From positions 740,309-804,308 of the forward strand of contig JAHRHZ010000215.1 in the NCBI GenBank assembly GCA_024137785.1: a DNA stretch of 64,000 nt. The letters are read 5' to 3'. The notes under the pieces are model-generated. The model worked only from the letters and a program-made list of their open reading frames with translations, ran no database searches and was not told the DNA's origin. Of the stretch, positions 31,401-62,443 are shown one piece after another. A program made the position numbers and the translations under genes. The DNA comes from Ginglymostoma cirratum (Eukaryota). The first letter of the stretch is position 1; the number at the start of each line of letters is the position of its first letter.

Positions 31401-34400
31401 TCCTTCCTCCCAGCTATCCCCTCCTCTCACCTCAAGCCCCACCCCCATCTCCTACCTCCTAACCTCATCCCGCCCCCTTGACCTGTCTGTCCTCCCTGGA
31501 CTGACCTGTCTCCTCCCTACCTCCCCACCTACACTCACCTTTACTGGCTCCATCCCTGCCTCTTTGACCGGTCTGTCTCCTCTCCACCTATCTTCTCCTC
31601 TATCCATCTTCTATCTGCCTCCCCTTCTCTCCCTATTTATTTCAGAACCCCCTTCCCCTCCCCCATTTCTGAAGAAAGGTCTAGGCCCGAAACATCAGCC
31701 TTCCTGCTCCTCTGATGCTGCTTGGCTTGCTGTGTTCATCCAGCTCTACACCTTGTTATCTCAGACATTAAAAACTTATTGAATTGCTGTTCGGTGGGAA
31801 AAAGAGTGTTTTCTTTGGCACTCTGCAATATGTGCTGAGTGCTCCAGTCCTCCGTCATAGCCAGAGCCAACTTTCTGACATTCAATGTGACAGAAACATG
31901 CCTCGTTGTGCACCTACCCTCTGAACAATCATTGTTCCATCTCCGTAGGTGTTGCTGGATGTTTCAGCTGCTGAAGACTCCTCTTCATCATGCACCACCA
32001 TTGTGCTTACGCTGTCTGTGTCACCGTCTTTGTTACGGCTTGGTCTGAAGAACAAAGCCAAAAATTCGAAAAAAATTTCGAAGCGATACCATTTATTTTC
32101 ATCATCAATTTATTTTGTGACTGCTTTAAGACATAGATTTCATCTGCAGAGAAGGAGTTATCATTATTATAAAGTCATGGCTCTCATTTTCAGGGCAAAT
32201 CACATTATAGAAGTCTATCCTGTGTTTCTTCTTTTGATCTTTATTCATCATGGGCTGAGGATGACACTGGCAACAAACAGCATTTGTTGCCCATCCCTAA
32301 TTATCCCGGAATTGAAGAGCTTGCTACATCATTTCAGAGATTAGTTAGGAGTCAACCACATTGCTGTGGATCTGGAGTCAAACTGGGGTTGTTTTCTCTG
32401 GAGCAGAGGGGAGAGGCTAAGGGAAGACTTGATAGAAGTCTATAACATTATAGATAGGGTTGACAGTCAGAATCTTTTTCCCAGAACTGAATTGCCTAAT
32501 ACTTGGAGGCATGCACTTAAGATGAGAGGGAAAAGTTCTAAGGAGATGTGAGGGGCAAGTTTTTTTTTTAAAACAGAGAGTGGAAGGAGTTTGGAATGCA
32601 CTGCCAGGGGCGGTGGAGGAGGAAGGTAGGATAGGGACGTTTAAGGCACTTTTAGACAAGCACATAGATGTGCAAGGAATGGAGGGATATGGACCAAGGG
32701 CAGGCAGAAGGGATTAGTTTTGTTTGGCATCATGTTCGGCACAATATCGTGAGCTGAAGAGCCCGTTCCAGGGCTGTACTGTTCTATGTTCTATGATTCC
32801 AGGTAAGGACAGCAGATTTCTTTCCCTGCAAGGACTTTAGTGAGGCAGCTAAGTTTTTGTAATAACCGCTGATTGTCTCAGTAAGTGACCATGAAACTTG
32901 ATTTTGATCCCAATTCCTTTACAATTGATTAGTTAAAAGCACGTATTAAATCCACCACCTGCTACAGTGATATTTGAACCCACATCCCAAGGCCTTGTGG
33001 GTTACTGGTTGAGTGACATTACTGTGGTGTCATCATTGCCCTGTTGTACACTGATAAATGTACATGTGGAAGCAGGGAGGCTACTGTGCTCCCACAGCTC
33101 GATACACCTGACTATGCTAGCAGATGAGAATAAGCCACCTAACTGAGGCACTAGACAGGACAAACAGACAAACTTCTGGGAAGAGAGAGAAAGAACTTTG
33201 GACTGGGTAATGATAATCTGAAGACAACTTATTGAATTCACATCCAAAAAGCACGTTTTCTTCCCACAACACATGACTGACTAGGCATCCTCTTTCTGTT
33301 TCAGGTTTGAAGTTGTTTGCTTTTACTGGTGCCTCGTCAAAAGTGATAAAGCTGACAATTGGTGGGAGTAGGCAGTCATGAGGTAGTTAACAAGAAGGAC
33401 AGCATGTATGATTTGCGCCGTGCCATGTACTTTAAGAAGCAGCTTGTTACTGGTCATTGCTGCCATAATGAGGGCCCTGGGTCTCTTTTTAACCAGTGAA
33501 TGAGTCGTTCATAAAGTGATGAAGCAGCTGAGCTGCCCAGCCACTTCAGCCTGGACCACAGGAAGTACTCACCCTGATCTGGAGCCATCAGAGCTGGACA
33601 GATTCTCATCTTGACGTTCACTGTCAGCTTCCTCCTCATCATCATCACTGCTGCCAGAGTCCTCACTGGAGGACGAGTAGTCCATCACTTTAACCGGTGG
33701 TTTGGGCAGCTCGTCTGACCGGATGTCTTTCCCCAGGTTCAGCATGTCCTTTAGAAACACATTAAAGTCTCTTAATCTAGCAGGAAAAACCCAAGGTCTT
33801 TACACCAACCAGCAAACCTACTTGTTCAGTTAATGTGCTAGAGTTCCCACACATCTGACAATAGAGGCTTTTTACTGATCATAGCAAGCCAACAATTACA
33901 TGATTTCAATGAACTGTCAACAGACATGCTCAAAGTGAACCTTAACACAGAAATTATACATTCCTATCGAGATCCCTTCATGAAAACGAAAAGAAATATG
34001 TCGTCATGCTGATATGAAAATTGGCTTGCTACATGGGAAGATCACTCATCCGACTGCTTCTTTCATTCCACCCAACAGCTACATATAGCTATTCCGATAT
34101 TAACACTTTCAGCAGTCACAAGCCCATTAAAAGATCCTTTTGCAGCATTAAACTTGCTGTCAAGCCCAGAAATGCAGGTCTCTAGTGCACTGTCTGGTTT
34201 TATTCAGTGCATTAATCACCCTACTTACAAGAATGAATTTGATTATATCTGTGACCCTGTCTGCCCTCGTACAATTTACAATTTGATTTCAATGTCCTCA
34301 GTCTATGCTTTCAATCTCATCAAGTTTGTACACCCCAAAGATCATCTCTTAGTTACGCTCTTTCTCTGATCAAAAGGCCCAAATTTACCTTGTGCTTTGA

Positions 34401-37400
34401 CATAAATGACTGGGGAAACTTCAGGACTTTGGGTTTACAGCAAGGGAGTGCAACTAATTGTCTAGCTTGGTCAAAGAGCTGGCACAAGCACGATTGGCCA
34501 GTTGGCCTCCTGCCTTGCTGCTAGGTTCCGTGCTGTCTCACAGCTTAGACATTTGACGTCGTCAGCCATGAGGCTTTCCTCTGCAATAACCCCAGTACTC
34601 ACAAAATTTCCTTGTGTAGCAAAGATCAGAAGCGGACACGGTATTCCCACTGCAGCCTGATCAGTGCATCGTACTGTTCCTTTCTTTGAAAGGAACCCAC
34701 TGACATCTTGGCTTTGGGTATCAGCAACGATTTTCCTGATTGACTACAGCAGAGAAGCAGCCACATTGACCAAGTCTCCCAGGTTTCTTTCACCATCACC
34801 CTGAGCCGCTTTAACCCCATTAATGCTGTATTGATGGGTTGGTATTGGCAAGTGTATGCATGTGAACAAGGAGAGAGCTTTCTATGAGGTTGCAAAGCTG
34901 AACATCAAGCCAAAGCAAATACGATCCAACATATACAAATGTCAGATGTAAAAGCAAGCTTACAGTAAAATACAGATTGACACTAACCTCACCTATTGCC
35001 CTCTTATAGCTCTGAGAAGTGGCAAAGTTTTGAAGGCAAAAAGGAAGAAGGCACAAAGTTATTTAAAAACAAATTGAAATCACACATCATTGAACTAATT
35101 CAAATTCAATACTGCAGCCATAATACACTCAAAGTCATACTTCTAAGACAAAATGAACGACAGGACAGTTTCAGGAGAGAACAGTAAATCAAGTTTAGAG
35201 TAACAGGATACACAGACTGGCTTAAATTGCACTGTGATCCAATTGTTTACATTCAACTAAAGAAGGATTTGTGCTCCTGACTTCAGACAACCTTGGGCAT
35301 CTTTGTAGGGAAAGCAGACTGGATACATTGATTTAATTACCAAGCAAATCAGCTCAAGACTGAACACAACGGAGTCTGGCCAGGTACTGAGATTGCAAAA
35401 TGCTTCTCCAGAAGGGTTGGAGGAAGACAGAATTGGCAAGTGACACTGGGACAAGAGGTGTAACCCCAAATGCCAGAATCAGAGCAATTCAACTGTGACA
35501 ATGTGGCTGAGAGCTGGCAAGTGGATATTTCTTGCAAGGAGGTCTCAAGTTGCAGAGGGCAGGAGTTTCTTTTCATGGGCTGTAGGTGTCACTGGCTAGG
35601 TTAACAGTTATTGCCCATCCCTAATTGGCCTGAACTACCACTACAGTTCTTGAGGTACAGAAATAATGTCATAGCTCCAAGTCAGGATGGTGTGTGACCT
35701 AAAAGGGAACTTGCAAGTGGTGCTGTTCCCATGCTTCTGCCGCCCTTGTCCTTCTAGGTTTTTTTGGCCTGGAATAATATTTTGCATGCTCTAGACTGTT
35801 TACTGTGGCATTAGCTTCCCTCCGCTGGCTAAGACGAGGAGTAACTCACTCACACAAACCAGGAAGACCCCAAGTGAAATCCAGTTAAAATCACTACAGG
35901 CATAATAAACCCATTGTGTATCCATCAGTTGTTCATGCAGAGGCCATTCAGCCTATCAAGTCGGTGCAATCATTCAATTAGATCTGGCTGATCTGTACTT
36001 GAACTCCATCAATCCATCTTGGTTCTGTCACGTTCAATACCTTAACCAAAGTAAGATGTATCAATTTCAGTTCTGAAGCCTTCAACTGACCAGCAGCATT
36101 TTTTTAGTGGGGCAAGAGATTTCCATGCCCATGTGAAGAGCTGTTCTCGATTCTAACATCAAGGTTTTTCTTGCTTCTTCTGTACTTTTCCCAATATTTC
36201 CCAATCCCAAATACCCCCTCACCTGCATCCGCCTATCACCGCCCCACCTCCCCTCCCTCTCGCTTCCCTGACCTGACACAACCTGTCCATCTTCCTCCCC
36301 GTCTATCTGCTCCATCCTTCCCACCGACCAATCCCCACCACTGCCTACCTGTACCCACCTATCACACCCCACCTACCTTACCCCAGCTCCAACCCTCTTC
36401 CCTCTATTTATTTCCCAGCTCCCTTCCCCCTCCCCAACTCTGAAGAAGGATCCCGACCCAAAACATCGACTTTCCTACCCCTCTGATGCTGCCTGATCTA
36501 CTGTGTTCCTCCAGCTCCATACTGTGTTGTCTCTGACTCCAGCATCTGCAGTTCTTGGTATCTTTGATTTCTCTGTACTTAATACTTTAATCATCATAAC
36601 GTACCTTGATTTGATTGCTTTTCTCAAGTTTAATACAAACCCCTGTTGTTTTTTTAAAAGAAGGTGTGTTATGTCTTGTGGCTGTGCTAATCCAGGGAAG
36701 TGGTGAGTAAGTTATATCATACATACGTATCAACAGCAAGAGGAAAAAACATGCTTCTCAACCAAGGTGAGCAGCTTGGACACTCAATCTGAAGACTACA
36801 CTAACAAAGAAAGTAGCAAGACCCAGTTATTAAGATTGCTGAAAGAATGCAGCTCAATTTAAGTCCGTCAACTCAGTAGACGGCTCAGGGTTGATTAAAC
36901 TGACTGCAAATAGACCGACTTGTCTTTTCACAGACAGTACATTGCATCATTACATTTGCTATAATCCTTGTTACTTAACAATCGAATGAGAAGGTATTTC
37001 AAAAAAAGGATATTTGGCAAGCTCCTTTAGGAGACTGCTGTCACAGTGGGGAGGCACACAGGACAGTTCCTAATCGTTTCACTTCAGTTACGATCCAAGA
37101 CACTTGAAGGGTGAGGAATCCATGTAGGGAAACAGACACACTCCTGAACTGTTCAAGCTTCAGTGGATAATGTAATCTGGGCTATACTTAGAGCAATCCC
37201 CCTTCTCTTCTCTGGCCAAAAAAAGAAATGCAGTGCAAAACTGCATTTACCAAACTGTGGCTACTTTTCCCCTCCAATTTCCTGGACCATCAGTCTGATT
37301 TGGATTGCTGACTCAGCATCAATTCATGCTGGGTTGGACTATGTTGGCTCTGAACACTCAGAACAGAATGCAGGCTATTCCCCTCACTTAGACTCCATCA

Positions 37401-40400
37401 GTGACATATGTCACTCCAGCAGCATTCACAGTGGCGTCTGCCAAACCTGCAAACGTGTGAAACACGTTCAACCAAAGGCTGCAGTAGGATTAAACTAAAT
37501 GGAGTGAGATTACAGGTTGAGGGGCTGTTGATTGCTACTCAATGCATAAGTGCAGCAACAGATGCCTGTAAGTTTAGATGATGGCCTATTTGCCGGGATA
37601 ATATGACAAACAACTGCAATAAATTACTTCAAGATGCACTGACTGCTGCCATGTCAAGAAATGTAGCCATGCATCTGTACACAGCAAGATCCCACAGCAC
37701 AACTCAATGATTAGTGCCTCCCTTTTGATGACACTGGTTGAGGGAGGAACATTGGATCAGGGAACCATTTTGCCATGGGATTGCTGGTCGCAGCAGAGGG
37801 CAAGACCTTACCTGAAGGATTACAACCTAGGTGACATGGCACACCACCAGGATAATCTGCTTAATTAACGTGCTCAAATCCAACCTTCTGCCATAAGTAG
37901 CAGTATTGGCGACGGAGCCATAAGAGTGTGGGTAAGACTAATTTTACAAACACTCTCTCAGCAGAGTAACAGGTTATTTGGTCTAACTGATCCATGAGGG
38001 TGTTCATGTTTCATATGAACCTTTTTCCAGTTTTTAAAAGGTACATTAAATTTTTACAGTGTTACGTGAAAACGGTGCTTTAATATTAAATTAGGAGAAC
38101 ATTAGGTAGATCCCACTTTACAATGTCACATTCTACAAAATCAAGATGGCTGATTTTATTTAGAAAGCTGGAGTGGTAAATTACAGTAACAAGTTGTATT
38201 TGCTTTATAATTTAATGAAGCAAAATAAAATCTCAGCACTTAAGATGAATGGGGCAACAAGAATAAAGGTAGTTTTTCAGTAAGGTGTAACGTCAAGTGA
38301 ATCACTTCTGCTTAATTTTCACATAAGCGTGCATCCTGCCCTGTAAATTTGAGAACTGTCTGAGTGAAGAGATCTCCACATTGTAACAAAACTTAAGGAT
38401 ATTCCAAGCGCTTCCTCTCAAAAGCAACAATGTAGGATTTCTTATAAAGGGAGGAAATATTTCACGTTCTGAAAACATGATTGCGAGGCTAACCTCCTAG
38501 AATTCCCAACACTGGTAAAAACCAGAAAATGGATAAACCATATCTAAGCTCAGTCACTTTAGCATAGCGGGGACTGTTTGACAATTCCAGAGGGTCACTG
38601 ACCTACTATTTCAGCCTCCTACATTAGTCAGCATTCACACTTACTGCAGGTCTTCCAGGTCGTGAGGTAGTGCGTATCTCCTCTGGCTTTCCCCGGTTTG
38701 TATCCTGTGAGAGAATTGGCGATCCTTCAGGCTTGGAGGAAGCTGGTGGTGTATTTGTGCGTATGGGTATGGGGGTGGAAAGAGGGGAAAAGAAAAGTCG
38801 CAAGTTAACAAATGCAAGCCAAACAAATAGCACTTAGCTAATTCAAGTCAAGTTAAGGTCACTGATGTTTTGACTCTAAAACAATAATCTCGAAATGAAC
38901 ACATATCTAGGTTTTAAACATTCCTGATAATGTTATTTTTGTTTTAAAAAATCTTCACTTGTCTCCTCTCAGATCAATCTCTACAGTTGAACATACTGAG
39001 CTCAAAATATCCAAATAACAATCCAACCTCCACAGAAATACTTGAGGTGACTGAAGACTACCTTTCATATCCTCTATGTGCCAAAACCACTTAGTCACTG
39101 TTCAAAGTACAATTGATATCATAATGTAGAAACATGACGATCAACCTAAATGAACAATGCTGTTAATGCTCCATTTGAGCATTCTTCCTCTTGATTATTT
39201 CCTCTCAAATTAACTTTTTTCTTCTTTCGCCTTCATCTACTTACATAGCTTTCCTTTAAAAACATTTTCCTTCAACTATTCATTGTGGTAGTGCAGTCTT
39301 ATCATTCACTGAATAAGACAGTTCTTAAAAGACAATCCTTGCTGGATTTATTCCTTATACTTTACAACTACTGTAGACATACAGCAACAGCAGGAAAGGC
39401 TCACCAAGGTGGTTCCTGGGATGATTAACTGGCATTTAGAAGAACATGAGTGGATCTCATTCAAACATAAAATTCCATAGGGCCAGACTGAATACAAGAA
39501 TGATGTTCTCCCTGGCCAAGGAGGGGATTTAGTCCCAGAACTAGAGGTCATCATAGCTTCAGGATAAAGGCTCAGCTATTTTGGACTGAGATGAGGAGAA
39601 CCAATTGTAAACCACAAGTCACTATTTAAGAAAGAAATAGATTTCTAAAGACTAAGACACTAGGGCGGTACAGTGCCTCACAGTGTCAGTGACCCAGGGC
39701 AACTGTCTATATGGAGTTTGCACGGTCTCCCCATGTAGTGTAGGGGATGGGCTTAGATTAGTTCACAGGTCGGCACAACATCGAGGGCCGAAGGGCCTGT
39801 TCTGCACTGTATTGTTCTATGTTCTATGTTCTATGTTCTATGTTCTATGTTCGCGCGTGTTTCCTCCGGGTGCTCCAGTTTCCTCCCAGGTCCAAAGATG
39901 TACACATTAGATGAACTGGCCAAAAAGTAAATTGCCCTGTACTGTTCGTGGATGTGTGGGCTAGGTAGGTTAACCACAGTAAATAGGGAGTTATGGGGAT
40001 AGGATGGGATGCTCTTCAGAAGGTTGGTGCAGACTTGATGGCCAAATGTCCTCTCTGCATTGTAGGGATTCCATGATTCTTTGATTCTAAGGCCATCAAG
40101 GAGTATGGGCAGAGACAGGAATTCGGCAATGTGAATCATGGAGCAGGCTTAATGACCTACTCCTGCTTTTTATGTAGATGTCAGCATACGAGCTGACCTT
40201 TGCAGCCTTGAAAAATCCCTCCAAGAATCAGGAAAGTCAATTTATATGCCAAGTGTAAGAATGAACTTGGCACATAAAGCTTGTTGGTTTTTGCGCAGAA
40301 GTTTTTTTTTCTTTTTCCTGAAGAAGGGTCACTGGACCCAAAACATTAACTCTGATTTCTCTCCACAGATGCTGCCAGGCCTGTTTTTTCCAGCAATTTC

Positions 40401-43400
40401 TCTTTTTGTACATAAGGAAGGGTATTGTCTTATACACAGCAATGTGGCTGACTCTTAATTAAGGATGGGCAGAAAATGCTGGGCTGGCCAGCGAAAAACT
40501 CACCCATGAATGAATTAATTTAAAAAAACTGGGTTAACACTTATGCTGTGATCTAGGGTATGATCCGTCATTTTGATTTTCTGCACAAGTAGAAATATTT
40601 TCTCTGCATCTACTCCACCAAAGCCTTTCACAATCTTAAAATATGAGAACAGAGCTCAGTAAGCAGACAGCCCAGAGTCTGGGAAATGCTAAGGGCAATC
40701 TGAGTGCAAGTTGAGCGAGCCAAAGATGGACAATGGAGGCTAATAGTTAGGACTTAGCATGTTAATCATTATTTTCCATGTCGTGTAGTGCTGGGTGTTC
40801 CCTGCTCTTCAGCAAATTTTCCAGCAGTGCCTTGGAGTACTGCCAGGGTATACCTCGATGTATTTCGACCACAGAAATTTTAAGACGATCTTACATAATC
40901 ATAGCTATTGGTAAAAGATTGAATATTTTAGAGCTTTTCACTTTGTGCAAGACTTTGAAGTGGCCTTAAGAATAGTGCCAACTTGATCTGACGACTTACG
41001 AGCCAGATTTCAATTTAGATGCACTTAATTCAAGTACTTTACAGTATATAGAATATGCAATGGAGCAAATCTGCTGGCAATAAGCCATATGATGACCAGC
41101 TTAAAATTTTGTTCCTAAATATATTGAGGTTTTCTAAACAGTACTTCAAATCAGCCAACTTACTTGTAATTCTGTTGCGCTCCATGGAACCAGTCCCAAG
41201 TACCCGGTGGGGGCCAATCAGTGGGAGACTTTCTGCCCTTTCCCATCCTGGCTCAATCCTGCGTAGATCCGGATTGCTATAACCAAAGCAGGACACCCAA
41301 GTTAGGCAACCGTTTGTGAGGCATAATATCCCATAGCGACATGACTGGCTCAAGGTTTCACTTTAGTAAACGATTAAACTGTGCATAAAGCACCCATCCA
41401 GAAAACACGCAACAAATACATGGCAGTTTGCAACTGTGCTGCTAAGTTGAATTTTTGGGCAAGTTCCTGCCAGGAACTTAAAATCCAGTCAGCCAGTCAT
41501 TAAAAAAAGACAAAAATGCATTTGCATAACACCTTTCCCAACCACAGGGAACCCCAATATTCTTCACAATCAATTAGGTATAACCGAAGCACCAATGTGA
41601 CGTGGAAAAATGCAACCAGTTTTCACACAAAGGCCCCATAAGTAGCAATGAGCTAACATCCAGATCACATGTTATAAAAGAGTAGTGAGGTCAGTTATGT
41701 TATTAGTGAGGGACTGAAGAAGGAAAAGAAAGGTTCAGGGCCAAAAAAAAACTAGGAGTAGCAGTACGCCAGCTAGCCCTTCAGGCTTCTGCTCCATTTA
41801 GTAAGATCAAATTCCACATGCCCATTAATTCCCAATGCGCTTTTAACTTTACTGCCTAAATTCAATAAGCCCCACCTCCACCGCCTTCTGATGTGGAGAG
41901 TTCCAAAGTTTCAAACTTCAGAAAAAAATTCCCCTCATCTCTGACCTAAAGGGGCAACCCCTAATTTTAAAACAGTGTATCTTAGCTCTGGACATACTCA
42001 CAAGACTAAACAGACTTTCCATGTCTAACCTGTCACGACCATCTTACACTTCAATTAAATCAGCCCTAGCTCTTCTAAATCCTAGTCAACAAGCCTAATT
42101 GTCTAATCTTTCTTCGTAAGACAACATGTTCATTCCAAGTATCAATCTAAGAGCCCTTTTCTGAACTACCTCAAATGCATTGCTTACATGAGAAGACTGA
42201 TGCTGCCTACAGTATTTGCGATGAGATCTTATGAAGGCTCTGCATAACTGGGCCATAGTACACTACTTTTATAGTCAATTTCTGTCACAATAAAGAATAG
42301 CATCTCATGAGTCTTCTTGATTAAATGTTGTAGATGCATACTAACCTTTTGAGAGAGTTATACACCAGAACACAAGGATCGCTTTGCACCTTGGAATTCT
42401 ACAGTTGCTCATTTTTAAAATAATTTTTAAATGAACAACCTCACATTTTCCCATATTCAGTGTAATGTGGTAGTATCAGATTAGTCATGATCTTATTGAA
42501 TGACACAGTAGACTCGAGGGAACAAGTGGTCTACTCCTGCACCCAAATTGTATGCTTGTATCACATTGACCAGGGCATTGCTTTCCCGTGAAACAATGGT
42601 CAGAGAATTTCACTTCATTTAAAAACCACTAATACTCTTGAACAGGTACCAAGATTACTTAGTCTAAACAACAGGTGATGCATCCACTTATATATCAGTA
42701 AAATAAAGGAAGAATTGATCTGCTATTTCAGTCTTCATGCCTATGGCCATTCAAACACAACACAATCATTACCTGGCCGATTTCCACAGGTACTGAGAAT
42801 CAGAGAAGGGCCGAGAAGTGAAGGGAATAGCACAGGGCACAGGGCAGCTAGAAGTAACACCATCCTCAAACTAGTTTGCACTCTGCAACCTGCTTCATGC
42901 CATGCTGAAGCAGCTATGAACTGACAAAGGAAGGTGTCCATGGGATATGCTCACTATGCAAGATACTGGAATGAGAAAGGTTAGACAAATCTAAACAGAG
43001 ACAGATTTCCTGCTTGCATTTGGGCAAGCCAGCTCCCATCTTTGTTCTTCTTTAAAGGCTGAAAGCATTGCTGGCCACGGCATTTATTATTCCTCCCAAA
43101 TTGCCCTTGAGAAGGTTTGTGAGCTAAGTTGACCATGACAATCCATGGGATGCAGGGGTATCCACAATGCTCTTAGAAAGGGAGTTCCAGGATTCTGAAC
43201 CAGAGACACTGGAGGAACAGCAATACATTTCCACATCAGGACGGGTGCATGGCTTGGAGTGGAACATGCAGGTGGTGGTGTTCAAATACATCTCCTGCCC
43301 TCATCTTTCTCGGTGGCAGTGGATACAGGTTCAATAGGTGATGTTCAAGGCATGTTGGTGAACTACTAAAGCACATCTTGTATAATATGCACAATACTGA

Positions 43401-46400
43401 CACTGTGCGTCGGTGATGGAAGGAGTAAATGCTGAAGTGCTGAATTGGGTGATTAAATAAGTGGCACTGCAGAGCTACAATTGGTGGGTGGATCACAGAA
43501 TTTGGACACAATTAGTCATAGAGATATACAGCATGGAAACACACCCTTTGGTCCAACACGTCCATGCCGACAGGATATCCTATATAAATCTAGTCCCATT
43601 TGCCAGCATTTGGCCTATATCCCTCTAAACCCTTCCTATTCATATACCCATCCAGATGCCTTTTAAATGTTGTTCTGGTACCAGTCTCCACCACTTTCTC
43701 TAGCAGCTCATTCCATACACGCATCACCCTCTGCGTGAAAAGCTGACCCTCAGGTCCCTTTTAAATCTTTCCCTTTTCACCTTAAACCTATGCCCTCTAT
43801 TTGTGAACTCCCTAACCCAGGGAAAAGACCTTGCCTACTTACCCTATCCATGCCCCTCATGATTTTATAAATCTCTGGAAGGTCACCCCTCAGCCTCTGA
43901 TGCTCCAGGGAAAATAGCCCCAGTCTATTCAACCTCTCCCTATAGCTAAAACCCTCCAACCCTGGCAACATCCTCGCAAGTCTTCCCTGAACCCTTTCTA
44001 GTTTCACAACATCCCTCCTATAAGAGGGAGGCCAGAATTGGATGCAATAGACCAAAAGGAGCCAAATGAATGTCCTGTACATCTGTAACATGACCTCCTA
44101 ACTCCTATATTCAATGCACTGTCCAATAAAGGGAAGCATACCAAACACCTTCTTCACTACCCTATCCGAGACTCCACTTTCAAGGAACTTTGAACCTGCA
44201 CTCCAAGGTCTCATCGTTCAGCAACACTCCCCAGGACCTTACCATTAAGCGTATAAATATTGCCCTGATTTGCCTTTCCACAATATAGCACCTAACAGTT
44301 ATCTAAATTAAACTCCATCTGCCCACCTCAGCCCATTGACCCATCTGGTCAAGATCCCATTGCAGTCGGAGGTAACCTTCTTCACTATCCACTAAGCCTC
44401 CAGTTTTGGTGTCACCTGCAAACTACTAACCATACCTATGTTCACATCCAAATTATTATACAAATGACAACATGCAGTAGACCCAGCACTGATCCTTGCA
44501 GCACACTCTGGTCACAGGCCTCCAGTCTGAAAAGCAACCCTCCACCACCACCCTTCGTCTTCTACCTTTGAGCCATTCCCATATCCAAATAGCTAGTTCT
44601 CCCTGTATTCTGTGTCATCTAACCTTGCTAACCAGTCTACCATGAGGAACCCTGTTGAAAACCTTAATGAAGTCCATAAAAATCATATCCAATGCTCTGC
44701 CTTCATCAATCTTCTTCATTACTTCTTCAAAAATCTCAAACTAGTGAGGCACGACTTCCCACACACAAAGCCATGCTGATTATCCCTAATCAGTCCTTGC
44801 CTTTCCAAATACATGTAAATCCTGTCGCTCAGGATTTCCTCCAACAACTTGCCCACCACTGATGTCAGGCTCACCAGTTTATAGTTCCCTGTCTTTTCCT
44901 TCCCAAGTTTCTTAAACACTGGCATTAGCCAACCTCCAGTCTTCCGGCACCTCACCTGTGGCTATTGATGATACAAATATCTCAGCAAGGGGCCCAGCAA
45001 TCTCTTCCCTCGTTTCCCACAGAGTTCTAGGGTATACTTGATCAGGTCCTGGGGATTATCCACGTTTATGTATTTTAAGACATCCAGCACCGCCTCTTCT
45101 GTAACATGGACATTTTTCAAGATGTCGCTATTTATTTCCCCACATTCTCTGTCTTCCATATCCTTCTCCACAGTAAACACTGATGCAAAATACTCATTCA
45201 GAATCTTCCCCATCTCCCGCGGTTCGACACATAGGTGACCTTGCTGATCTTTATTCTCCAAGAGAAAAGTGCACAAATGAGTGAGCAAAGATCAAGGCAA
45301 AAGGAATATTTCACACGAGATGGACTTAGTGCAACTGAGGCAAATTCAATGAGGTGACACTATAATTGATTTGGGAACCGCACTAAGGGTTCCAGTCGCT
45401 ATTATGGCTATTGGTTCATAGTGACTGGATGACTGGCATTCTGATCTAACAAATAAATCTCCTGGATTTTACTCTTAAAAGTGGAATCTTACAATTCATT
45501 CTCTTCCTCATGAAGACCATAAGTCAGTGGTCTTGAGCACGCACATTAGTTTAATGGCTTGCTGTGTATTTCCAGCATCGTCTGTATTTCACTCAGTTTG
45601 ATTAATCACCGGGTTGGCTGCCTGCTAAACTTGGATGAATAGAAGAGAACAAGGGGACAAGAGAGTGTTGAACGGTTTATATTACCTTGCACGCGGTGCC
45701 TGCCCCGGTCGATTTATCAGAGCACTACTGCTGTTCAGTGCTGTAGCTATGGAGGTCGTTCTCTGAGGAACCTTCAGCCAAAAAGAAACAAATCTGTTCA
45801 TGTTCAATTCCAACAGCAAATCTACTCTGAAGAAAATATGGAGTTAGGCTGTGAGACTTTCTTTTCAAGTCATACTTCGATGGATAAATTCCCTTTTGGA
45901 AGGCCATTGTGACCTGGCATTTGTATCGAGTACTGCTGTATTTAAAACGTAAGTACTGTGACTTGAACTTCAGGTAGGGTCTGACAGCCATTTGCTCATT
46001 TAGAGGTCAAATCACACGGTGAGAATTATTTTAGCTTCATTAACAGTGGCCAATTAATTACACGCTCCAGGCACAGGGGATTGCATGATAACCTGTGTAA
46101 TACTCCATCTGTTACTGAAGTCAATCTGCAAGATAATTTCAACTACCTTCTGTTAATAATGGGAGCTGCAATTAATACCTTGGCAGACAGTGTTAAAAAG
46201 TTTCATTTATACGCTCTCTCCCATCTTGCAGAAAGAATTCAAGAGTAGTTTCTGTACAATGAGCAAGTCTGGAACACAGTTACTACCAATGTCAACATAA
46301 TGAGCTGTTATTTAGAGGCAAATGATTTTTTTAAAAAAATCAATTCATGAGATGCAGGCATCACTGGGTGGACCAGAATTTATTGTCCATCTTTAATTGC

Positions 46401-49400: not shown

Positions 49401-52400
49401 CAGCTGTGGAGGTTTCATCATTATGGTCAAAACTGAGATTGATAAATTTTTGTATATTAATAAAATCAAGGGATAACAGGAAAATTGAACTCAAGTACAA
49501 GATCAGCCATGACCTGCATGAAGGCTGAGGGGGCCCGAAGGGCAGAGTAATCTAATCCTGTTCTTAAATTCTTTTCCAGTTGTGAGTGCTTTATCAGCAT
49601 TTTCCTATCTAATGCACTGCAAGGTCTTTCAGTTCCCGTTCTGTTTCAAACTTGTACCTTGGGAGGTGCCTCATCTTCCATCTTCACCCATGGCCCAGAG
49701 TCGTCTCTGTTGCTGGCACGGGGTGGGAGTACAGGTGTCTCCGAGGTCGGGTCAGAGTTCTGACGCAGCATCTCACCACGCTTCACTGGTGCAGGCTCCT
49801 GGGTCGGGAAGGCAGCGACATTCTTGGTCGGTTGGTCTTGGAGTGACTGAGACCGCGGTACCGGTGCTGACGACGGCTTCAGCGCAACAAGGTGCGCCAC
49901 TTGAAACTGCAAGAGACGCTCCAGTGAGAACTCAAAGGACACTGGAACAGCAGAGGCCAACTGATACTTGCTACACAATCATTAATGCCCCACCTCAAAC
50001 TCACACAAATACAACAGTTGCTGCAAATCTGAAACAAATGCAAAATAAAAATGGAGGCAAGACATGGCACAGTCCAAAAGCTGAATCATTAATCATTTTC
50101 TCATTTCACTGATGCTGCCTACGCGGATAAGCATTTCCAACATATTCTGTACATGTTAAGTCAACTTCTTCTGTCACCCACATATTCAATTATCAGAGAT
50201 TCATGGAAAATTATTGCAACTATCAATTTTTCGTTGCATAACACCAGTGATCACAAGAACTTGAGCCTCAGATACTTAGCATCTATATTAATGATTTAGC
50301 AGGAAGTTGAGGGCATTTACTCTCAATACAAAGTTACATATGATGGAAAGTGCTAAAGCTGCAGACAGATTGGTGCATGACTTGATGGACTGCTGCACAG
50401 GGAAAGCAACGTTAACAGTTTGAAGAAGAACTACCTTTGACTGGGCTCCCTGCGGCTCCACAGGTCGGTGCATGGGTGGCGTCTGAGAGGTCTGGGCAGC
50501 ACTGCTGGGTACAGATTCAGTGAGTGACTGCAGTGATGGATCAGATATTGTTGTCCCCATCTTAGGCTTTGCACCAGGAGAGTTCTGCCTGTTCATTTTG
50601 GAGCGTTCTTCAACCTTCACAGGCAAGGGGGGGTAGGGCGCAGACGCCACCCAGGCACCGACGTGTGGAGCCGCAGGGAGCCCAGTCAAAGGTAGTTCTT
50701 CTTCANNNNNNNNNNNNNNNNNNNNNNNNNNNNNNNNNNNNNNNNNNNNNNNNNNNNNNNNNNNNNNNNNNNNNNNNNNNNNNNNNNNNNNNNNNNNNNN
50801 NNNNNNNNNNNNNNNNNNNNNNNNNNNNNNNNNNNNNNNNNNNNNNNNNNNNNNNNNNNNNNNNNNNNNNNNNNNNNNNNNNNNNNNNNNNNNNNNNNNN
50901 NNNNNNNNNNNNNNNNNNNNNNNNNNNNNNNNNNNNNNNNNNNNNNNNNNNNNNNNNNNNNNNNNNNNNNNNNNNNNNNNNNNNNNNNNNNNNNNNNNNN
51001 NNNNNNNNNNNNNNNNNNNNNNNNNNNNNNNNNNNNNNNNNNNNNNNNNNNNNNNNNNNNNNNNNNNNNNNNNNNNNNNNNNNNNNNNNNNNNNNNNNNN
51101 NNNNNNNNNNNNNNNNNNNNNNNNNNNNNNNNNNNNNNNNNNNNNNNNNNNNNNNNNNNNNNNNNNNNNNNNNNNNNNNNNNNNNNNNNNNNNNNNNNNN
51201 NNNNNNNNNNNNNNNNNNNNNNNNNNNNNNNNNGCAAGTGAATCAATAGCTCAAATAAAATCAAGCAGATGATGCGTGTTCCTCAGGCTTGGCTTTGTAC
51301 CACTAAGTTCCAGGATCAGTTTTGTGTGCAAAAGAAACCTGTAGCAAAATGCATTGCCATTCTTAATATCTTGCTTCCCCCAGGACATAATTAGGGACAC
51401 TAAATACAACAAATGTGGAGGCTAGCAATTCTGAACGGATTGTTATATGTCACCAATTATTTATGCAATTTACTCTTCCTCCAGACAAGATACGGTCAAC
51501 TATATTTTTTGATTCTCTGGTGGGGTGTGGGCATCACTGTCTGGACCAGTATTTATTGCCCATCCCTAGTTGCCCTTGAGAAGTTGGTGGTGAGCTGCGT
51601 TCTTGAACTGCCTCAGTCCACTAGATGCTTCTAGATGGTAGTGGTCGTGGGTTTGGAATGTGCTGCAGGGCATCTTGTAGATGGCACATACTGCTGCAAC
51701 TGAGCATTGGAGGAGAATTCCTTCATTATAATGGTGCAGACATTGCAGTGCCCAGTACCCAATGATGCACCATACAACCTCGACCCAGTTGTGCCTCAAT
51801 CCTGTACATACCATTCGTGAGCTTTGACTGCTCTGTTTTATAAACACTGAAAATTAGAGACAACCACATGATACACATTTGATGCCCTTTTCAGATACTC
51901 TACTCTCTTAAAAATACAGGAAAGAAAAATAAAGAGCACTCGATTTCAGATGTGTTTGCTGAATGCCTGGTCTTTTAATTTCAAGAACTAAAGATTTTCC
52001 CCACTCCAGGAAGAACCAAATGTTGCAGTGTACAGAATCTCAGGCTCACTGGACACAGTTGACCATACAATGAGCTGACTGCACTACTGGGAAATGTAAA
52101 CCAGACATCTTTACATTCTCATTATCTCCTCATTACATCTTCCTCAGGACCCCAGAAAGTGATGTGAAGAGCTGTAGCATGCAAGACAGGCAGATCTGTA
52201 AGAGTGTGACAGTGTGAGCACAAGTGGGTCTGTGTGGGTGGACTGGTAAGTAAAGTGAAGCACAGTTATTGCACCATGTTTACTTGAATCTTTTTGAATT
52301 GAAAGGCGTTCCACAAAGCACAGCAATCAGATACAAGGACCGTGTCTGCAAGTTCCCCTCTACACAACACCAACAGAGAATTCTAGGAGTAACTTGCCCA

Positions 52401-55400
52401 CCCAGAGGGTGGTGTGAATGCAGAATTCTACACACTGGGGATGAATGAGGTGACCATAGCTGATTATATCAGAGAGGAAGCGAAGATAAAGTTCCAAAGA
52501 ACTGTATAGAACTGAAATTACAGAAACAAGCTATTCAATCCAACTAGTCTATGACAACATGTATGTTTCTTTGAGGTTCTATCATGCTTCATCTCATCTC
52601 ATACTACCAGAAGAACATTGCACACCCTTCTGTCAAATGCTTATCTTGTTTCACCTTAACTGCATACGTACAATTCAGATGCACTATTTCCTGCCATAGC
52701 AAGTTCTACATTCTCAATACTCACTGGGGAGAGTAATCGATTCTTGATTCTTTGCATGCTTGGGTGAGACAAAGTAAAGTACTTTATGTCAAGGAGATAT
52801 CGATGTACAAAGTCCTAGTGAGACCACACTTGCCGTACTGTGCTCGGTTCTTAAAAATCACGCCTTGGTAAAGGTAAATTGGCTTTGGAGGAAGTACAGC
52901 AAAGGTTTATCAGCAGAGAGACTGCGAAGGGCCAAATTAAGAAGATAATGTTGCGATGACACTATTGTTTTAAGACATGCATTTTTTCCTGGTTTTGTGT
53001 TTTGGAGAGGTTTTAAGACAGAGGTGCAGAGCCAATAAAGTAAATAACTTGTGAGGCCTTGGGCACTTTTTTTTAAAAAAGTTGGAACAAAAGCAGCAGC
53101 CTGAATGGGTGGCCTCAAGTTCCCCCAGGGCCATGACTTTTAGTTTTAGTTTTAGTTTTAGTTTTTCAGTAGCAGTTGCTGCTGGGGTTTTGAAGCTAGA
53201 GGTGGAAGCTGCTCCTCCTCTCTGTTACAGCTAAAAGCTGGGGTTCTCTTCCTGCTGCTAGAAATGCATGTGAGACAATCTATTTTACTGAATTTGCGTT
53301 TGCCAAGAGTGTATTTATGGGATGTTACTATATTGGAACAGCTGTTTAGTAGTTAAATAATCTATTATTCTGTCAAGTTTTCCAATAGAGTTAAGTTAGT
53401 CCAATTTGTTGTTCTTTTAAAAATCAAAAGAACCACGAATGCTGTAAATCAGAAATAAAAACAAATTGGTAGAAAAGCTCAGCAGGTCTGGAATTTATGT
53501 GTGGAGAGAAATCGGAGTTAACGTTTTGTATTGAGAGACCTTTCCTCAGAATATTTCGCTTGACCTGAAGTGTTAACTCTGATTTCTCCACTCATGCTGC
53601 CAGACCTGCTGATCTTTTCCAGCAATTTCTGTTTTTTATTTCTTCTACGAATAAAGTATGTTTTGCTTCAAGTCTGGTAGTTTGACCAATCGAATTGCAT
53701 CCGGAACACAAAGTTCGGCACTTGCCTTTAAAATAGGAGAAACTTAGGATCTAGGCAATCTTAAATATATTTTGAAGGGGTTTTGTCTGGTCAATGACAA
53801 TGTACGTAAACTACGGCTGCATTACTGGAACTGAGAAGGTTGTGATATTTTCAAGACATTTAAGTAATTGTTTGGTGGTACAAAACTTGCGGCGTATTGC
53901 TGAATAAAAGAGCTTGTTGAAGCTTTTAATGTTGCATTCATCAGGGCATTTTGCAAGAATACAAAATCAGGTGGAAACCGACATTTATACCAGGGTGTTG
54001 CAGAGAGAATGGTCTCTTCAGAATATAGGGAGGGGAAAACGTCTTTGACACCCTGATTCTGAAAGTGGCAGAAAATGACCCTTTAAATATGGAAGCTGGT
54101 GGGAAGCGGCAAACCCCCACTCCCCCATCACAATCATGGGAGGGAGGGGAAGGAGTGAGGACAGAAGTGTGGAGTATAGGCTGGATAAAGACCTGTCCTT
54201 GGTTGAGGAACAAGGAAAACATTTCAGGAATGCTGTTGTGAAGGTGCCATCTTCAGAACAGATGCACCAGAAATGGAGGAGTCAGGCAAATGGGAAGGTG
54301 TCCTTCCAGAAAGCAGGCAGTCTTATCAAGGTAGCTGTTAATAGACTTCTAACAAATATTAATAGATAATCTATTCCCAGAAACAGAGACAGAGAAATCA
54401 AGGAACTGAAAGGAGGAATTAGAGATGGGTTAAGGAGAATGTGGAAGCAAGACTGATTTATTTTCTTTTCAGTTCAGAACCAAAACAGGAAACGGCATCA
54501 ATACAGGTGTCACCATACAGGAACAGTTGTAGGAGGATGTCTGAGGAGAACTGGAATGAGGAATGTTTTCCACACCCCACAAAGGCAGGTGTAACAAGGG
54601 TTCGTGTGAATACCCATAGTCACCCCTCTCACTTTGTGAAAATGAGAGGAGCGAAAGGTGAAATTGTTCAATGAGAAAATCACCTTCAACAGGAGAAGAG
54701 TGGCAGTGCATGAGAACTGTTTGGGCCACCATGTCAGGAAAAAGAATGCGGTCCTCAGACTGTCCTGGAGGGGCACTGGGGTGTATGGAGGTATAATGAT
54801 CATAGTGGAGAGGTGGTGGTTAGGACCAGGAAACTGAGAATTGTTGAAGTGATGTAGGGCATCAGATGAATCTCAAATGTGTGGGAAGAGACTGAACAAG
54901 GGAGTCAAAAAAAGTTAAGTCAAAACAGTAAGAAATAGAAACAGAAATTGTTGGAAAAGCTCAGCAGGTCTGGCAGCATCTGTGGAGGGAAATCAGAGTT
55001 AATGTTTCGGGCCAAGTGACCCTTCCTCAGAAAGGATGGTAGCTAGGAAAATGTTGGTTTATATGCAGAAGACAGGGTGGGGGGAGGGGGTACAGAGTAA
55101 ATGATACGTCGGGGTATAGCCCAAAGACACAGAAAAACAGTTGGGATGGACAAAGTAGTGGATAACGATCTGGCTAGGAGGGGGAATAGCTATTAATGGG
55201 GATTAATGTTATTAGTCTAATGCTGGTGAAAATCCATTAATGGGGACTGGTAAGAAATAGGTTCAATGGGGCTGAAACAGGATGTGGCTACAAAGCAGGT
55301 TGTAGGCTGGATATCCTGCAGTGAGTAACTCACATCCCTGAAGCTTGCCCACATCAAGGAACAGTTAGGATTGTGATTTTTAAAAATTAATTATTTGATG

Positions 55401-58400
55401 GAATGTGGGTACCACTGGCAAGGCCAATATTTGCTGCCCATTCCTAATTGCTCCTTGAACTGAGTGCTTGCTTAGTCATTTCAGAGGGCAGTTAAGTAGC
55501 CTTAATTTCAATTCCTTCAAATAAATATCTGGCTTTTTTTTTAAACCTCCTATGCAATCCGCCTCCACCATTCTCCCAGACAGCACATTCCAAATAATTA
55601 CAACTCGCAGTCAAGAAGTTTCTCCTCAATTCACTCTTGCTGATGATTTTAAAATTGTGACCCCTAGTTGCTGACATACCAACTAGTGGAAACAGAATAT
55701 TCTTCTTTACCCATGTCAAAATGTTCATAAGTTTGACCACCTCAATAAGGTCACCTCTTAATTGACTCTGCTGCAAGAAGAATAAGCCTAATTTCCCTAA
55801 TCTTTCCTTGTATCTAAAATCATGCACTCCTGGTATCAGAGATAACACGGTGTAGAGCTGGATGAACAAAGCAGGCCAAGCAGCATCAGAGGAGCAGCAA
55901 ATGGTCTGAAGAAGTGTCTCTACCCGAAACGTCAGCTTTCCTGATCCTCTGATGCTGCTTGGCCTGCTGTGTTCATCCAGCTCTACACCATGTTACCTCA
56001 GATTCTCCAGCATTGGCAGTTCCTACTATCTCACTCCTGGTATCATTCTGGTAAATCTGCTTTGCACTCTCTCCAGGGCTTTAATATCCTTCCTTAAATA
56101 AGGTGTTCAGAATTGAACATGAAACTGAACACTCCAAATGTGGTATGGCCAATGATTTGTGGGGGTGTAGCACCACTTCCTTGTTTTTATACTCTACGTC
56201 GCTATTAATAAACCCAAATTTCCTTAAGCCTCCTTCAACTTGCCTGGCCACCAATCATGTATATGAACTTCGAAGTCCCTCTGCTCCTGTACTCCCCTTA
56301 GAGTTGTACCACTGAACTGTGTTATCTCTGTGATTCTTCCACCAAAACGCATTCCTTCACAACTCTCTGCATTAAAATTCATTTGCCAGCTGTCTGCCTA
56401 TTTGGCCAGCTTGTCAATGTTTTTCAGCATCATCCACACAAGTCACTATTCTCCCTAGTTTAGCATCATCTGCAATTTTAGAGATTTTGCTCTCAACACC
56501 AACCTCCAAATCGTTTATATAATCACAAATAGCAACATCAGTCCCAACAGTGATCCCTGGGCACACCACTTTCAACTTGTCTTCAATCTGAAAAATGCCC
56601 ATCTGTACCTAGGCTCTGTTTCCTTTTAGCCAACTTCTAATCCATTAATCCGAAACATTTGTACTTTGCTAACCACTCTGCCAAACTGTGTCCAATGCTT
56701 TTCGAAAGTCCAAATATACAACATCCACAGCACTATCCTCATTCACTATCTGGGTCACCTCGTCAAAGAACTTAATTAAATCTGTCAGACATGACCCGCC
56801 TTGACAATGCCATGTTGAATGTCTAGTATTAACTTATTTTTCTCCAAGTGTGTATTTACTTTACCCCAAATTAGGGTCTCCATCAGATTTCCCACTATTG
56901 ATGTCAAGCTGACAGGTTCGTAGTTTCCTGGGTTATCCTTTGTCCCTTTCTTAAACAATGGTGTCACATTGGCAATCCTCCATTCTACTGGGACTAATCC
57001 TGTGTTCAGAGGGGACTGAAAAATTTCTGCCAGTGGCTCCACAATTTGCTCCATTAACTTAGTCACCAATATAGGATGCATCCCATGCAGCCTGCCAACT
57101 TCCCTACTTGGAGTGCTGCTTCCCTTTTCAGCACTTTTTCTTTATCTAATCGCTATTCTGCACAGTTGTTCAACACCCACGTTTTCAACTAGGCCATTGT
57201 CACTGTCTTCTAATTTGGTAATGACAGATGCAAAATATTCATTTAGTACCTTTGCAAAACCCATTGCTTCAATGAGCAGCTTATCTGCTTGTTCCTTGTG
57301 GGTCCAACTCAATCCTTCATTAATTTTTTTACTAATAATATTTTTGAAGAATATTTTACAACTTGTTTCAGTGCAGCCTGCCATTCTTTCCTCACGTTTC
57401 CTTATTTCAGATATAGCCTCCCTCCTCCACTTGAGATACCCTTCCCAATTTCTATACATCCAATTTATCTTCCTTTTAAAATTCTCATGTTTTTCAAACA
57501 CTGTTTTATCCACCAAAATGCACTTACGATCAATTTGCTCTAGTTCAACTTTTAGACTCTTAAAATCTGCCCTTTTCCGACCTGGGATCTTAATCATTGA
57601 CTGATTTTTATCGTTTTCAAACTTAATATTGAGCCTTATTATGTTACAATAACCTTCTCCCAAATGATGCCCCACTGTGATGTTTGCTGATTGGCCTGTC
57701 TTATTTCCGAGCACCAGATCCAGCACAGCCCCCTCTCTGGTAGGACTGGAAATGTACAGTTCCAGAAAGTTCTCCTGCACACGTTGCACAAAGTTCTCCC
57801 CTTCCGTGCCCTAAATTCAACCCTTTTCCCAGTGTACCTTAGGGTAACTGAAAACACCAACTATGACAACCCTACTTGTCCGGCAGATTTCCGTAATCTA
57901 CAAATGCTAAATTCTACTTTCTGCCCACTATTTGGAGTTCTGTAATAAATATCCAAAGTCACAGCTCCCTTCCTGTTTCTCACCTTCAACCATACAGATT
58001 CTAATTCTGAACTATATCTCATTCAAGGGCAATGATACTATCTTTGACCAAGAATGTTACAACTCCTCCATTTTAGCCACCCTGTTTCTACTAAAAGCCA
58101 TATAACCCAGGACGTTAAGTATCCAGACCCGTTCTGGCTTGAGCCATGTTTCTGTCAATACTATGAGGTTCTGGGGAAAGGGCAGGAAAATGGACATGAG
58201 GAGTGTCAGATCGGCCATGACCCTATTAAATAGCGCAGCTGGCTAAAGGGGCTGAAAGGCCTACTCCTGTTGCTATTTCTTATCGTCAAACGATGCTAAC
58301 GGATCCAGGCCAAAAGCAAGTGTATGGAGTTGATCACAGATTTGCTTAGATCTCACTGAATGGCAAAGCAAACCCAAAGAATTAAATTCCTGATTTCCTG

Positions 58401-61909: not shown

Positions 61910-62042
61910 AATTCTGAAGAAGGGTCTAGGCCCGAAACGTCAGCTTTCCTGCTCCTCTGATGCTGCTTGGCCTGCTGTGTTCATCCAGCTCTACACCTTG
62001 TTATCTCAGATTCTCCAGCATCTGCAGTTCCTACTATCTCTC
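61910..62042 (+). mobile_element. Penelope pLTR end with the best-preserved hammerhead-like core
   Basis: ctgaagaagggtctaggcccgaaacgtc at 61914-61941; downstream sequence matches 31669-31764. Confidence 0.8.
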
Positions 62043-62256: not shown

Positions 62257-62443
62257 TAAAAACTGAAAGAACTGTGGATGCTGTAATTCAGAAACAAAAA
62301 CACAAATTGCTGAAAAAGCTCAGCAGGTCTGACAGCATCTGTGGAGAGAAATCAGAGTTAATGTTTCGGGTGCAGTGACCCTTCCTCAGAACAGAGGACC
62401 GGGCAGACCTGCTGAGCTTTTCCAGCAATTTCTATTTTTGTTG
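62257..62443 (-). mobile_element. Partly palindromic PLE-derived mini-element
   Basis: Inverted cagacctgctgagcttttccagcaattt arm; degenerate 15-bp TSD at 62242-62256 and 62444-62458. Confidence 0.75.

Follow-up and report, generated by a model that had tools for sequence, protein, structure and literature searches.

Minimal type I hammerhead ribozymes have already been described from Penelope-like elements (PLEs) by Cervera and De la Pena (2014), and the motif analysed here from the shark Ginglymostoma cirratum is the same one. As set out in the accessible part of that account (PMC4209133), the minimal motifs are of type I and have an extra base between positions 9 and 10.1, a G10.1-C11.1 pair, a helix I of 4–5 bp, and a palindromic 15.2-16.2 segment without a loop 3. 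They occur as several consensus families per genome, mostly as single copies or opposite-strand pairs from truncated PLEs. The shark motifs share these features and differ in a shorter helix II (4–5 bp in the families A, B, and C described below). That part of the source neither names sharks nor maps copy ends relative to the motif.

For the element Poseidon of the green anole (PAc), the accessible text of Frangieh et al. (2024; PMC11167929) traces the PLE tail to two internal reverse-transcription starts, with internal starting shown in vitro, and describes cleavage as dispensable in vitro and protein-dependent. The shark elements resemble PAc in the two putative internal start sites that give an optional tail, in AT-rich targets, in a hammerhead just upstream of the tail, and in the apparent use of uncut RNA as the main template. 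They differ from it in that the ATG of shark family A lies 166 nt after the core, beyond the tail, in their Neptune-type CX4CXXC linker, and in a minor class of copies that starts at the cut site, where no anole RNA reads are described as ending in that text. With the Neptune-clade EN+ PLEs (Craig et al., 2021; PMC8557442, in the text accessible) they share a reverse transcriptase (RT) with a C-terminal GIY-YIG endonuclease, a Zn-finger-like linker, partial tandems, an inverted 5′-truncated copy, and a one-sided tail of 30–40 bp, with no substantive difference. The same text calls the role of PLE hammerheads unclear. Non-LTR retrozymes, according to the accessible portions of bioRxiv 10.64898/2026.07.22.740005 and PMC7229834, are likewise PLE-related type I hammerheads dispersed in vertebrate genomes; they form tandem arrays of hammerhead units, whereas in the shark the copies are ends of autonomous elements, standing singly or as inverted arms. 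A literature search whose scope stopped short of subscription papers, Repbase, Dfam, and bioRxiv supplements returned no report of shark PLE hammerheads or of copy ends at their start or cut site. Neither the motif nor its host elements are new, and the copies in the window are ordinary debris. We put at roughly 70% the reading that the sites are the scattered ends of three PLE families, with the hammerhead likely at the very start of the RNA and the local copies likely inert.

The window, by which we mean the whole 64-kb stretch of DNA analysed, contains repeats that are the ends (pLTR and tail) of three PLE families, A, B, and C. Family A cores are found at 31669, 36440, 55906, and 61914 (all plus strand), family B cores at 40318 (plus), 53549, 55030, and 62389 (all minus), and a family C core at 24188 (plus) with a mirror core at 24185 (minus); an extra family A copy at 30653 (minus) has its stem II deleted. 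All the sites and strands listed in an earlier, sequence-only reading of this DNA are present in the window sequence, and the letters it gave for 61914–61941 match exactly. A strict descriptor (core, extra base, stem II of at least 3 bp, pairing of 15.2-16.2, and UH) is passed by one of the 10 listed window copies, namely 61914. This single real match compares with a mean of 0.025 in 200 dinucleotide shuffles, five of which reach one. The loose motif CUGANGA-N4-40-GAAA has 19 matches in the window, five of them inside these repeats; by itself it is weak evidence, and the real evidence is the repeat family.

The copy at 61914 is the sole one in the window with an intact core, stem II, and palindrome. 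Damage in the other nine affects G8, A9, G12, stem II, or the ACGU palindrome and falls mostly at CpG. G12 is missing in 36440, 40318, 53549, and the mirror core 24185, in which G8 is also changed; A9 is changed in 24188, and stem II is broken in 55906 and 53549. The ACGU palindrome is missing in 31669, 36440, 40318, 55030, and 62389. It is kept in 61914, and GAAA and ACGU never occur together in a family B copy of the window. A palindrome does occupy the helix III position, but it is 4 nt long (ACGU in A and B, AGCU in C) and not the six-base AACGUU or AAGCUU proposed, the sixth base being H17; helix III as a 6-nt palindrome is ruled out, with the helix I register putting the cut after GUU or CUU. 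An Rfam scan of the window returned 15 matches at E ≤ 10, none of them a hammerhead, as would be expected for motifs without a loop 3, and its miRNA-like matches are fold-back arms of the insertions. The copies in the window are likely inert.

Positions within the elements are numbered from the first base of helix I (+1). The intact minimal hammerhead (61914–61941, plus) consists of CUGAAGA, the extra A, a 4-bp stem II, GAAA, ACGU, and the GUC triplet, with a predicted cut between 61941 and 61942. It lies in a family A pLTR end (61910–62041, plus) that runs from the 5′ strand of helix I (61910–61913) through the core and the tail to the distal site (~+132). The sequence 5′ of 61910 is N, and a solo copy is thus not distinguishable from a long one. 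A two-armed family A insertion (30537–31765) is bounded by a 15-nt target duplication at 30528 and 31762. Its first arm is an inverted 5′-truncated copy (30537–30983, minus) without stem II, and its second arm (plus) carries a GIY-YIG end, a pyrimidine-rich 3′ UTR, the hammerhead at 31669, and a short tail, all in a single insertion. The PLE linker and GIY-YIG endonuclease remnant in this arm (30985–31393, plus) corresponds to aa 878–914 and 941–1020 of a 1037-aa family A ORF at 84–88% identity. An older family A variant with its 3′ UTR, which lacks G12 and the palindrome, is found at 36393–36568 (plus), and a fold-back family A insertion at 55835–56032, with a 14-nt target duplication at 55825 and 56032, is made up of a short inverted arm (55835–55901), the core at 55906, and the tail.

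Family B is represented by a solo end (40315–40409, plus) that has lost G12 and the palindrome; by a fold-back pair (53418–53643) whose core at 53549 faces an arm without a core (53556–53636, plus); by a copy with its 3′ UTR (54927–55202, minus) whose core at 55030 is intact apart from the lost palindrome and which is sense to the host pre-mRNA; and by a fold-back insertion (62257–62441) with a core at 62389 in the same state and a short opposite arm (62404–62441). The two family C cores form a fold-back insertion at 24093–24306. An old PLE reverse-transcriptase fragment (54286–54902, minus), in three frameshifted pieces with 42% identity to the family A protein, directly follows the tail of the B copy at 55030, and its DNA is nearer to that of family B long copies. 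The window also holds many decayed LINE-like RT and endonuclease fragments (14300–19500, 26000–27760, 43500–45300, and 56700–57800) and SINE-like repeats (e.g., 4743–4934, 27107–27298, 9293–9635, and 13775–14097).

The exons of the host gene, including those for a C-terminal CNH domain, lie on the minus strand between ~6143 and 60161, and their sequence marks it as a predicted MAP4K-type gene, plausibly MINK1 from an exon motif. No kinase exon was seen within the 64-kb window. All copies up to 56032 lie between host exons; an intronic position for the copies beyond 60161 assumes that the gene continues upstream of the window. A 65-bp inverted repeat of 97% identity (50421–50485 and 50641–50705) is located in or beside a host exon frame, adjoining a stretch of N.

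In the 4.36-Gb genome, a 28-place pattern of the A core has 11,699 exact matches, a 30-mer of the A tail 43,235, and the B-tail and C-tail patterns 2,280 and 1,165, respectively, with no match to any reversed control; these pattern counts are lower bounds on copy number, and family A has at least 43,235 copies. A genome search with the GIY-YIG remnant at 30985–31393 gave 109,204 first-look candidates. Longer family A copies encode RT and GIY-YIG domains (RVT_1, E = 6e-7; GIY-YIG, E = 0.011, below the Pfam cut-off), and an uninterrupted RT and GIY-YIG ORF of 1037 aa was found in locus L321 among 20 loci taken as full-length candidates. Two loci (L340 and L325) have the order hammerhead, tail, ATG, ORF, UTR, hammerhead, tail, with unit lengths of 3546 and 3568 nt; for family A, the unit measures ~3.55 kb and has a pyrimidine-rich 3′ UTR. 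Family A appears to be young, because 119 of 150 scored matches to a 60-aa piece are 100% identical. Long B copies are preceded by PLE protein at 54–71% identity and long C copies at 39–58%, and these lower identities make B and C separate families. This is consistent with the three Penelope-derived families of the sequence-only reading. The linker motif CX4CXXC is present in A (aa 886) and in two B copies (L217 and L227); linkers of the type CX2-5CXXC between RT and endonuclease mark Neptune elements (PMC8557442, accessible text), and this motif alone sets the clade of what we term predicted Neptune-type PLEs. The pLTRs form direct repeats in L340 and L325 and inverted arms in window and genome loci, and the optional tail is present. 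In L321, the 5′ repeat has no hammerhead core and its UTR is joined straight to the tail, and in L193 telomeric CCCTAA repeats (oriented positions 446–486) separate an inverted pLTR from the beginning of a family A ORF.

Two further hammerhead-bearing repeat families were encountered, D (L440, L469, L444, L477, L092, and L116) and E (L004, minus strand, ~2158), each with a longer stem II of 5–6 bp and a helix I of its own. A pairing test was made over one intact copy per family (A–E), picked by hand for intact cores. Helix I pairs in 20 of 20 cells and helix II in 20 of 20, with several pair types, and neither result was reached in any of 10,000 shuffles. The single palindrome change, from C-G at 15.2-16.2 in A, B, D, and E to G-C in C (all without a loop 3), is reached by 1,950 of 10,000 shuffles and is not significant alone. 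The majority sequences, each built from 22 copies of B or of C, form the same helices, and the core is intact in the family majorities. Stem II therefore differs between families and still pairs, as had been claimed, and minimal type I hammerheads with a vestigial palindromic helix III are borne out in three families. The extra base between positions 9 and 10.1 is A in A, B, C, and E and U or C in D, and the first helix II pair is G-C (G10.1-C11.1) in A, B, E, and the C copies L115 and 24188 of the window. Helix I, which had been called weak, is only 2 bp long in the older A variant, including 61914, but reaches 4 bp in young A (one U-G pair), 4 bp in B, and 5 bp in C.

The strict core is kept in 11 of 14 long A copies and in 8 of 24 long C copies. 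On the comparison of core with flanking repeat that the sequence-only reading had suggested, the core is slightly better kept than the UTR in long copies, on which the comparison was made since an earlier set chosen on the core is biased (0.99 vs 0.95 in 14 A copies; 0.89 vs 0.87 in 24 C copies). Among copies this is the wrong test, because inserted copies decay neutrally and constraint shows between families. B and C have U at position 17, which makes a slow triplet. In nearest-neighbour energy calculations another fold always beats the active dimer, which is poor for A (−6.3 vs −28.8 kcal/mol for young A; −1.7 vs −31.6 kcal/mol for 61914). An unfavoured dimer fold fits both the low activity given in the accessible text of PMC4209133 and the protein dependence of the anole element (PMC11167929, in part).

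Among 100 young A copies, 3′ ends fall at +88 to +101 in 51, at +129 to +139 in 39, and elsewhere in 10, and these two family A sites (~+97 and ~+132, ~35 nt apart) correspond to the PLE tail. Sampling of 5′ ends was anchored on the tail and hence blind to the core. In family A (55 copies, 10 bordering N set aside), 14 copies are long, 22 begin at −9 to +7, eight inside the core, none at the cut site, and one after it. In family B (51 copies, one set aside), four are long, 38 begin near +1, six inside, one at the cut site, and one after it, while in family C (50 copies) the numbers are 24 long, 12 near +1, 14 inside the core, and none at the cut site. Starts near +1 account for 22 of 31 short A copies (p = 2e-6) and 38 of 46 short B copies (p = 1e-13); the pile-up in C is weak (12 of 26; p = 0.09). 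Within the family A unit, the commonest 5′ boundaries are +1 to +6. Most short copies keep the whole core, and most retain the 32 nt 5′ of the cut site. Splicing into the motif was rejected as a general cause of the +1 boundary: an AG is found in B but none in A, and the target duplications of either family reach near +1.

Of 62 short young A copies whose A at +1 is intact, 26 have C at −1, 20 have G, 12 have A, and four have T. G makes up 20 of the 36 non-C bases (p = 4e-4) and 11 of 19 in simple insertions (p = 0.005), compared with 6 of 28 at the control position −3 (p = 0.8). A G stands between target duplication and element in L234, L376, L242, L366, L341, and L386; counter-cases have the G within the target duplication (L247, L349, and L399), no extra base (L395), or extra bases ending in T (L380). 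An extra-G count in family B is an unfair test, as an intact AGTT was the reason for choosing 20 of its 50 loci. In both A and B, the bases surrounding +1 match what we take to be the initiator pattern YYANWYY. The exact start is fuzzy, because T runs are common to element and target at many +1 junctions and the base at −1 is C in 26 of the 62 copies. Elsewhere, an extra G at full-length L1 junctions has been ascribed to the cap (PMC11702581), and a Drosophila element has its start and initiator within the pLTR (PMC2377424), according to the accessible text of each. Most stubs were probably copied to the capped end of uncut RNA. In five head-to-head pairs (L367, L260, L351, L372, and L398) both arms end at +1 and a single G or C joins them, as expected if one arm carries the extra G. 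In four other loci (L381, L238, L240, and L229) the first 15–20 nt are re-copied and stacked before +1, as if the polymerase had jumped back at a hard template end.

A minor, sharp class of copies starts at +33, the base after the GUC triplet and hence the predicted cut site, in the young A variant. Shares for +33 and its neighbours are hand counts on 100 matches listed per pattern and apply to this variant only. The +33 pattern has 829 matches, and the core is absent upstream in 58 of the 100 listed (17 of 30 by script), which gives ~480 copies (396–562). The +32 pattern has 327 matches, with the core absent in 31 of 100 listed by hand (10 of 30 by script) and ~101 copies (72–134), most of which are the spill expected when a +33 start follows a chance C. 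The +34 pattern has 3,117 matches, nearly all from a U-G helix I variant in which the first helix I pair has changed from U-A to U-G, and the core is absent in 3 of 100 listed (~94 copies; 19–265). Corrected for the filter, roughly 750 +33 copies stand against roughly 13,800 short young-core copies (11,051 matches), or ~5%, a rough ratio since the patterns behind the two counts differ. The target duplication ends at +33 in L450 and L424, L443 extends from +33 to +248 and reaches the ORF, and the two arms of the L441 hairpin meet at +33. In L448 and G000:C13:43345566, a tail end (~+93) is joined directly to +33 of a second copy.

Judged from these junctions, the main 5′ class and the minor cut-site class likely record the start and the cutting of the RNA. 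The same elements could instead have acquired their 5′ boundaries at the DNA level, through RT stalling, microhomology at T- or A-rich runs, or an endonuclease cutting its own ATT, in which case the boundaries would say nothing about RNA ends or cleavage. Many target duplications do end in T runs that overlap the first bases of the element, the endonuclease of the anole element favours an ATT within its own pLTR (PMC11167929, accessible text), and some +33 junctions show A-rich microhomology with the target (L427 and L438) or are fold-back junctions. RNA reads add no ends: in a poly(A) run, the 5′ region of young A is covered by 42,307 unstranded reads, spread evenly over both mates' strands, of which 91% run into other sequence, with no pile-up of read starts or ends on that region, and a second run gave 13 reads there, so that the reads show read-through presence only. 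Against this explanation, B begins with AGTT and not ATT, yet has the sharper pile-up (38 of 46), copies seldom start at the element's remaining T runs (after the cut site, 1 of 45 A copies; at −18 to −46, none), the extra G is left unexplained, and microhomology alone would not favour +33 ~fivefold over +34. We consider boundaries made in DNA unlikely, though worth weighing.

It is far less probable, and largely refuted, that the short copies constitute a non-autonomous family, retrozyme- or SINE-like, that is excised by its hammerheads, circularised, and re-inserted independently. Solo copies do far outnumber full elements and have target duplications of their own, and non-LTR retrozymes are described as PLE derivatives, also from one cartilaginous fish (bioRxiv 10.64898/2026.07.22.740005, accessible part). 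However, the window has no head-to-tail tandem array, a second core within 1 kb on the same strand occurs in 5 of 60 loci, at irregular distances, vs 17 of 60 on the opposite strand, and the short copies match the pLTR of the full elements, have the same two tail end sites, and mostly retain the sequence 5′ of the cut site. The sequence-only reading had called the sites relics of ribozyme-processed shark PLE or retrozyme-like RNAs. The term retrozyme-like finds no support here, and an origin as relics of processed RNA is true of a few percent only, with starts within 2 nt of the cut site in none of 45 A, one of 50 B, and none of 50 C tail-anchored copies.

An action of the intronic copies on the MAP4K pre-mRNA, by cleavage or pairing, is the least probable explanation, and a role in host RNA is unlikely because every sense copy is damaged: five hammerhead-bearing minus-strand copies are indeed sense to the host gene, as had been claimed, and such repeats do occur in poly(A) RNA as read-through, but in each of them the palindrome, stem II, or one of G8 and G12 is lost, the only motif still intact is antisense and has a 2-bp helix I, the density in the window matches a family whose copies number in the tens of thousands, and the core in long copies is barely better kept than the UTR.

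If the scattered PLE ends do record RNA ends, a capped transcript would begin at ~+1, the element protein would nick AT-rich DNA, and reverse transcription would start internally at +97 or +132. Most events would run off the uncut capped end and leave solo or fold-back stubs of 100–140 bp, often with an extra G, while on read-through or tandem RNA the copying would proceed to the 3′ UTR and ORF, yielding long copies. In a few percent of events the template would be RNA already cut by the hammerhead, a reaction that would need a dimer formed via the 4-nt palindrome and probably the help of protein. After insertion, the motifs would decay, mainly at CpG (G12 and the palindrome). A bolder form of this proposal, on which we are evenly divided, is that the stubs, tens of thousands in number, may be a base-resolution fossil record of PLE RNA, with its capped start at helix I base 1, the hammerhead at the extreme 5′ end acting as a self-decapping switch, and about 1 in 20 short copies derived from cut RNA.

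The map of copy ends, with its cut-site class beside the likely capped-end class, is the part that could matter. If it holds, copies made from ribozyme-cut RNA would supply the evidence, so far missing, for cleavage by minimal PLE hammerheads in living germ cells, and the two boundary classes make the role of the hammerhead a testable question in a family that is young, very abundant, and represented by uninterrupted full-length copies.
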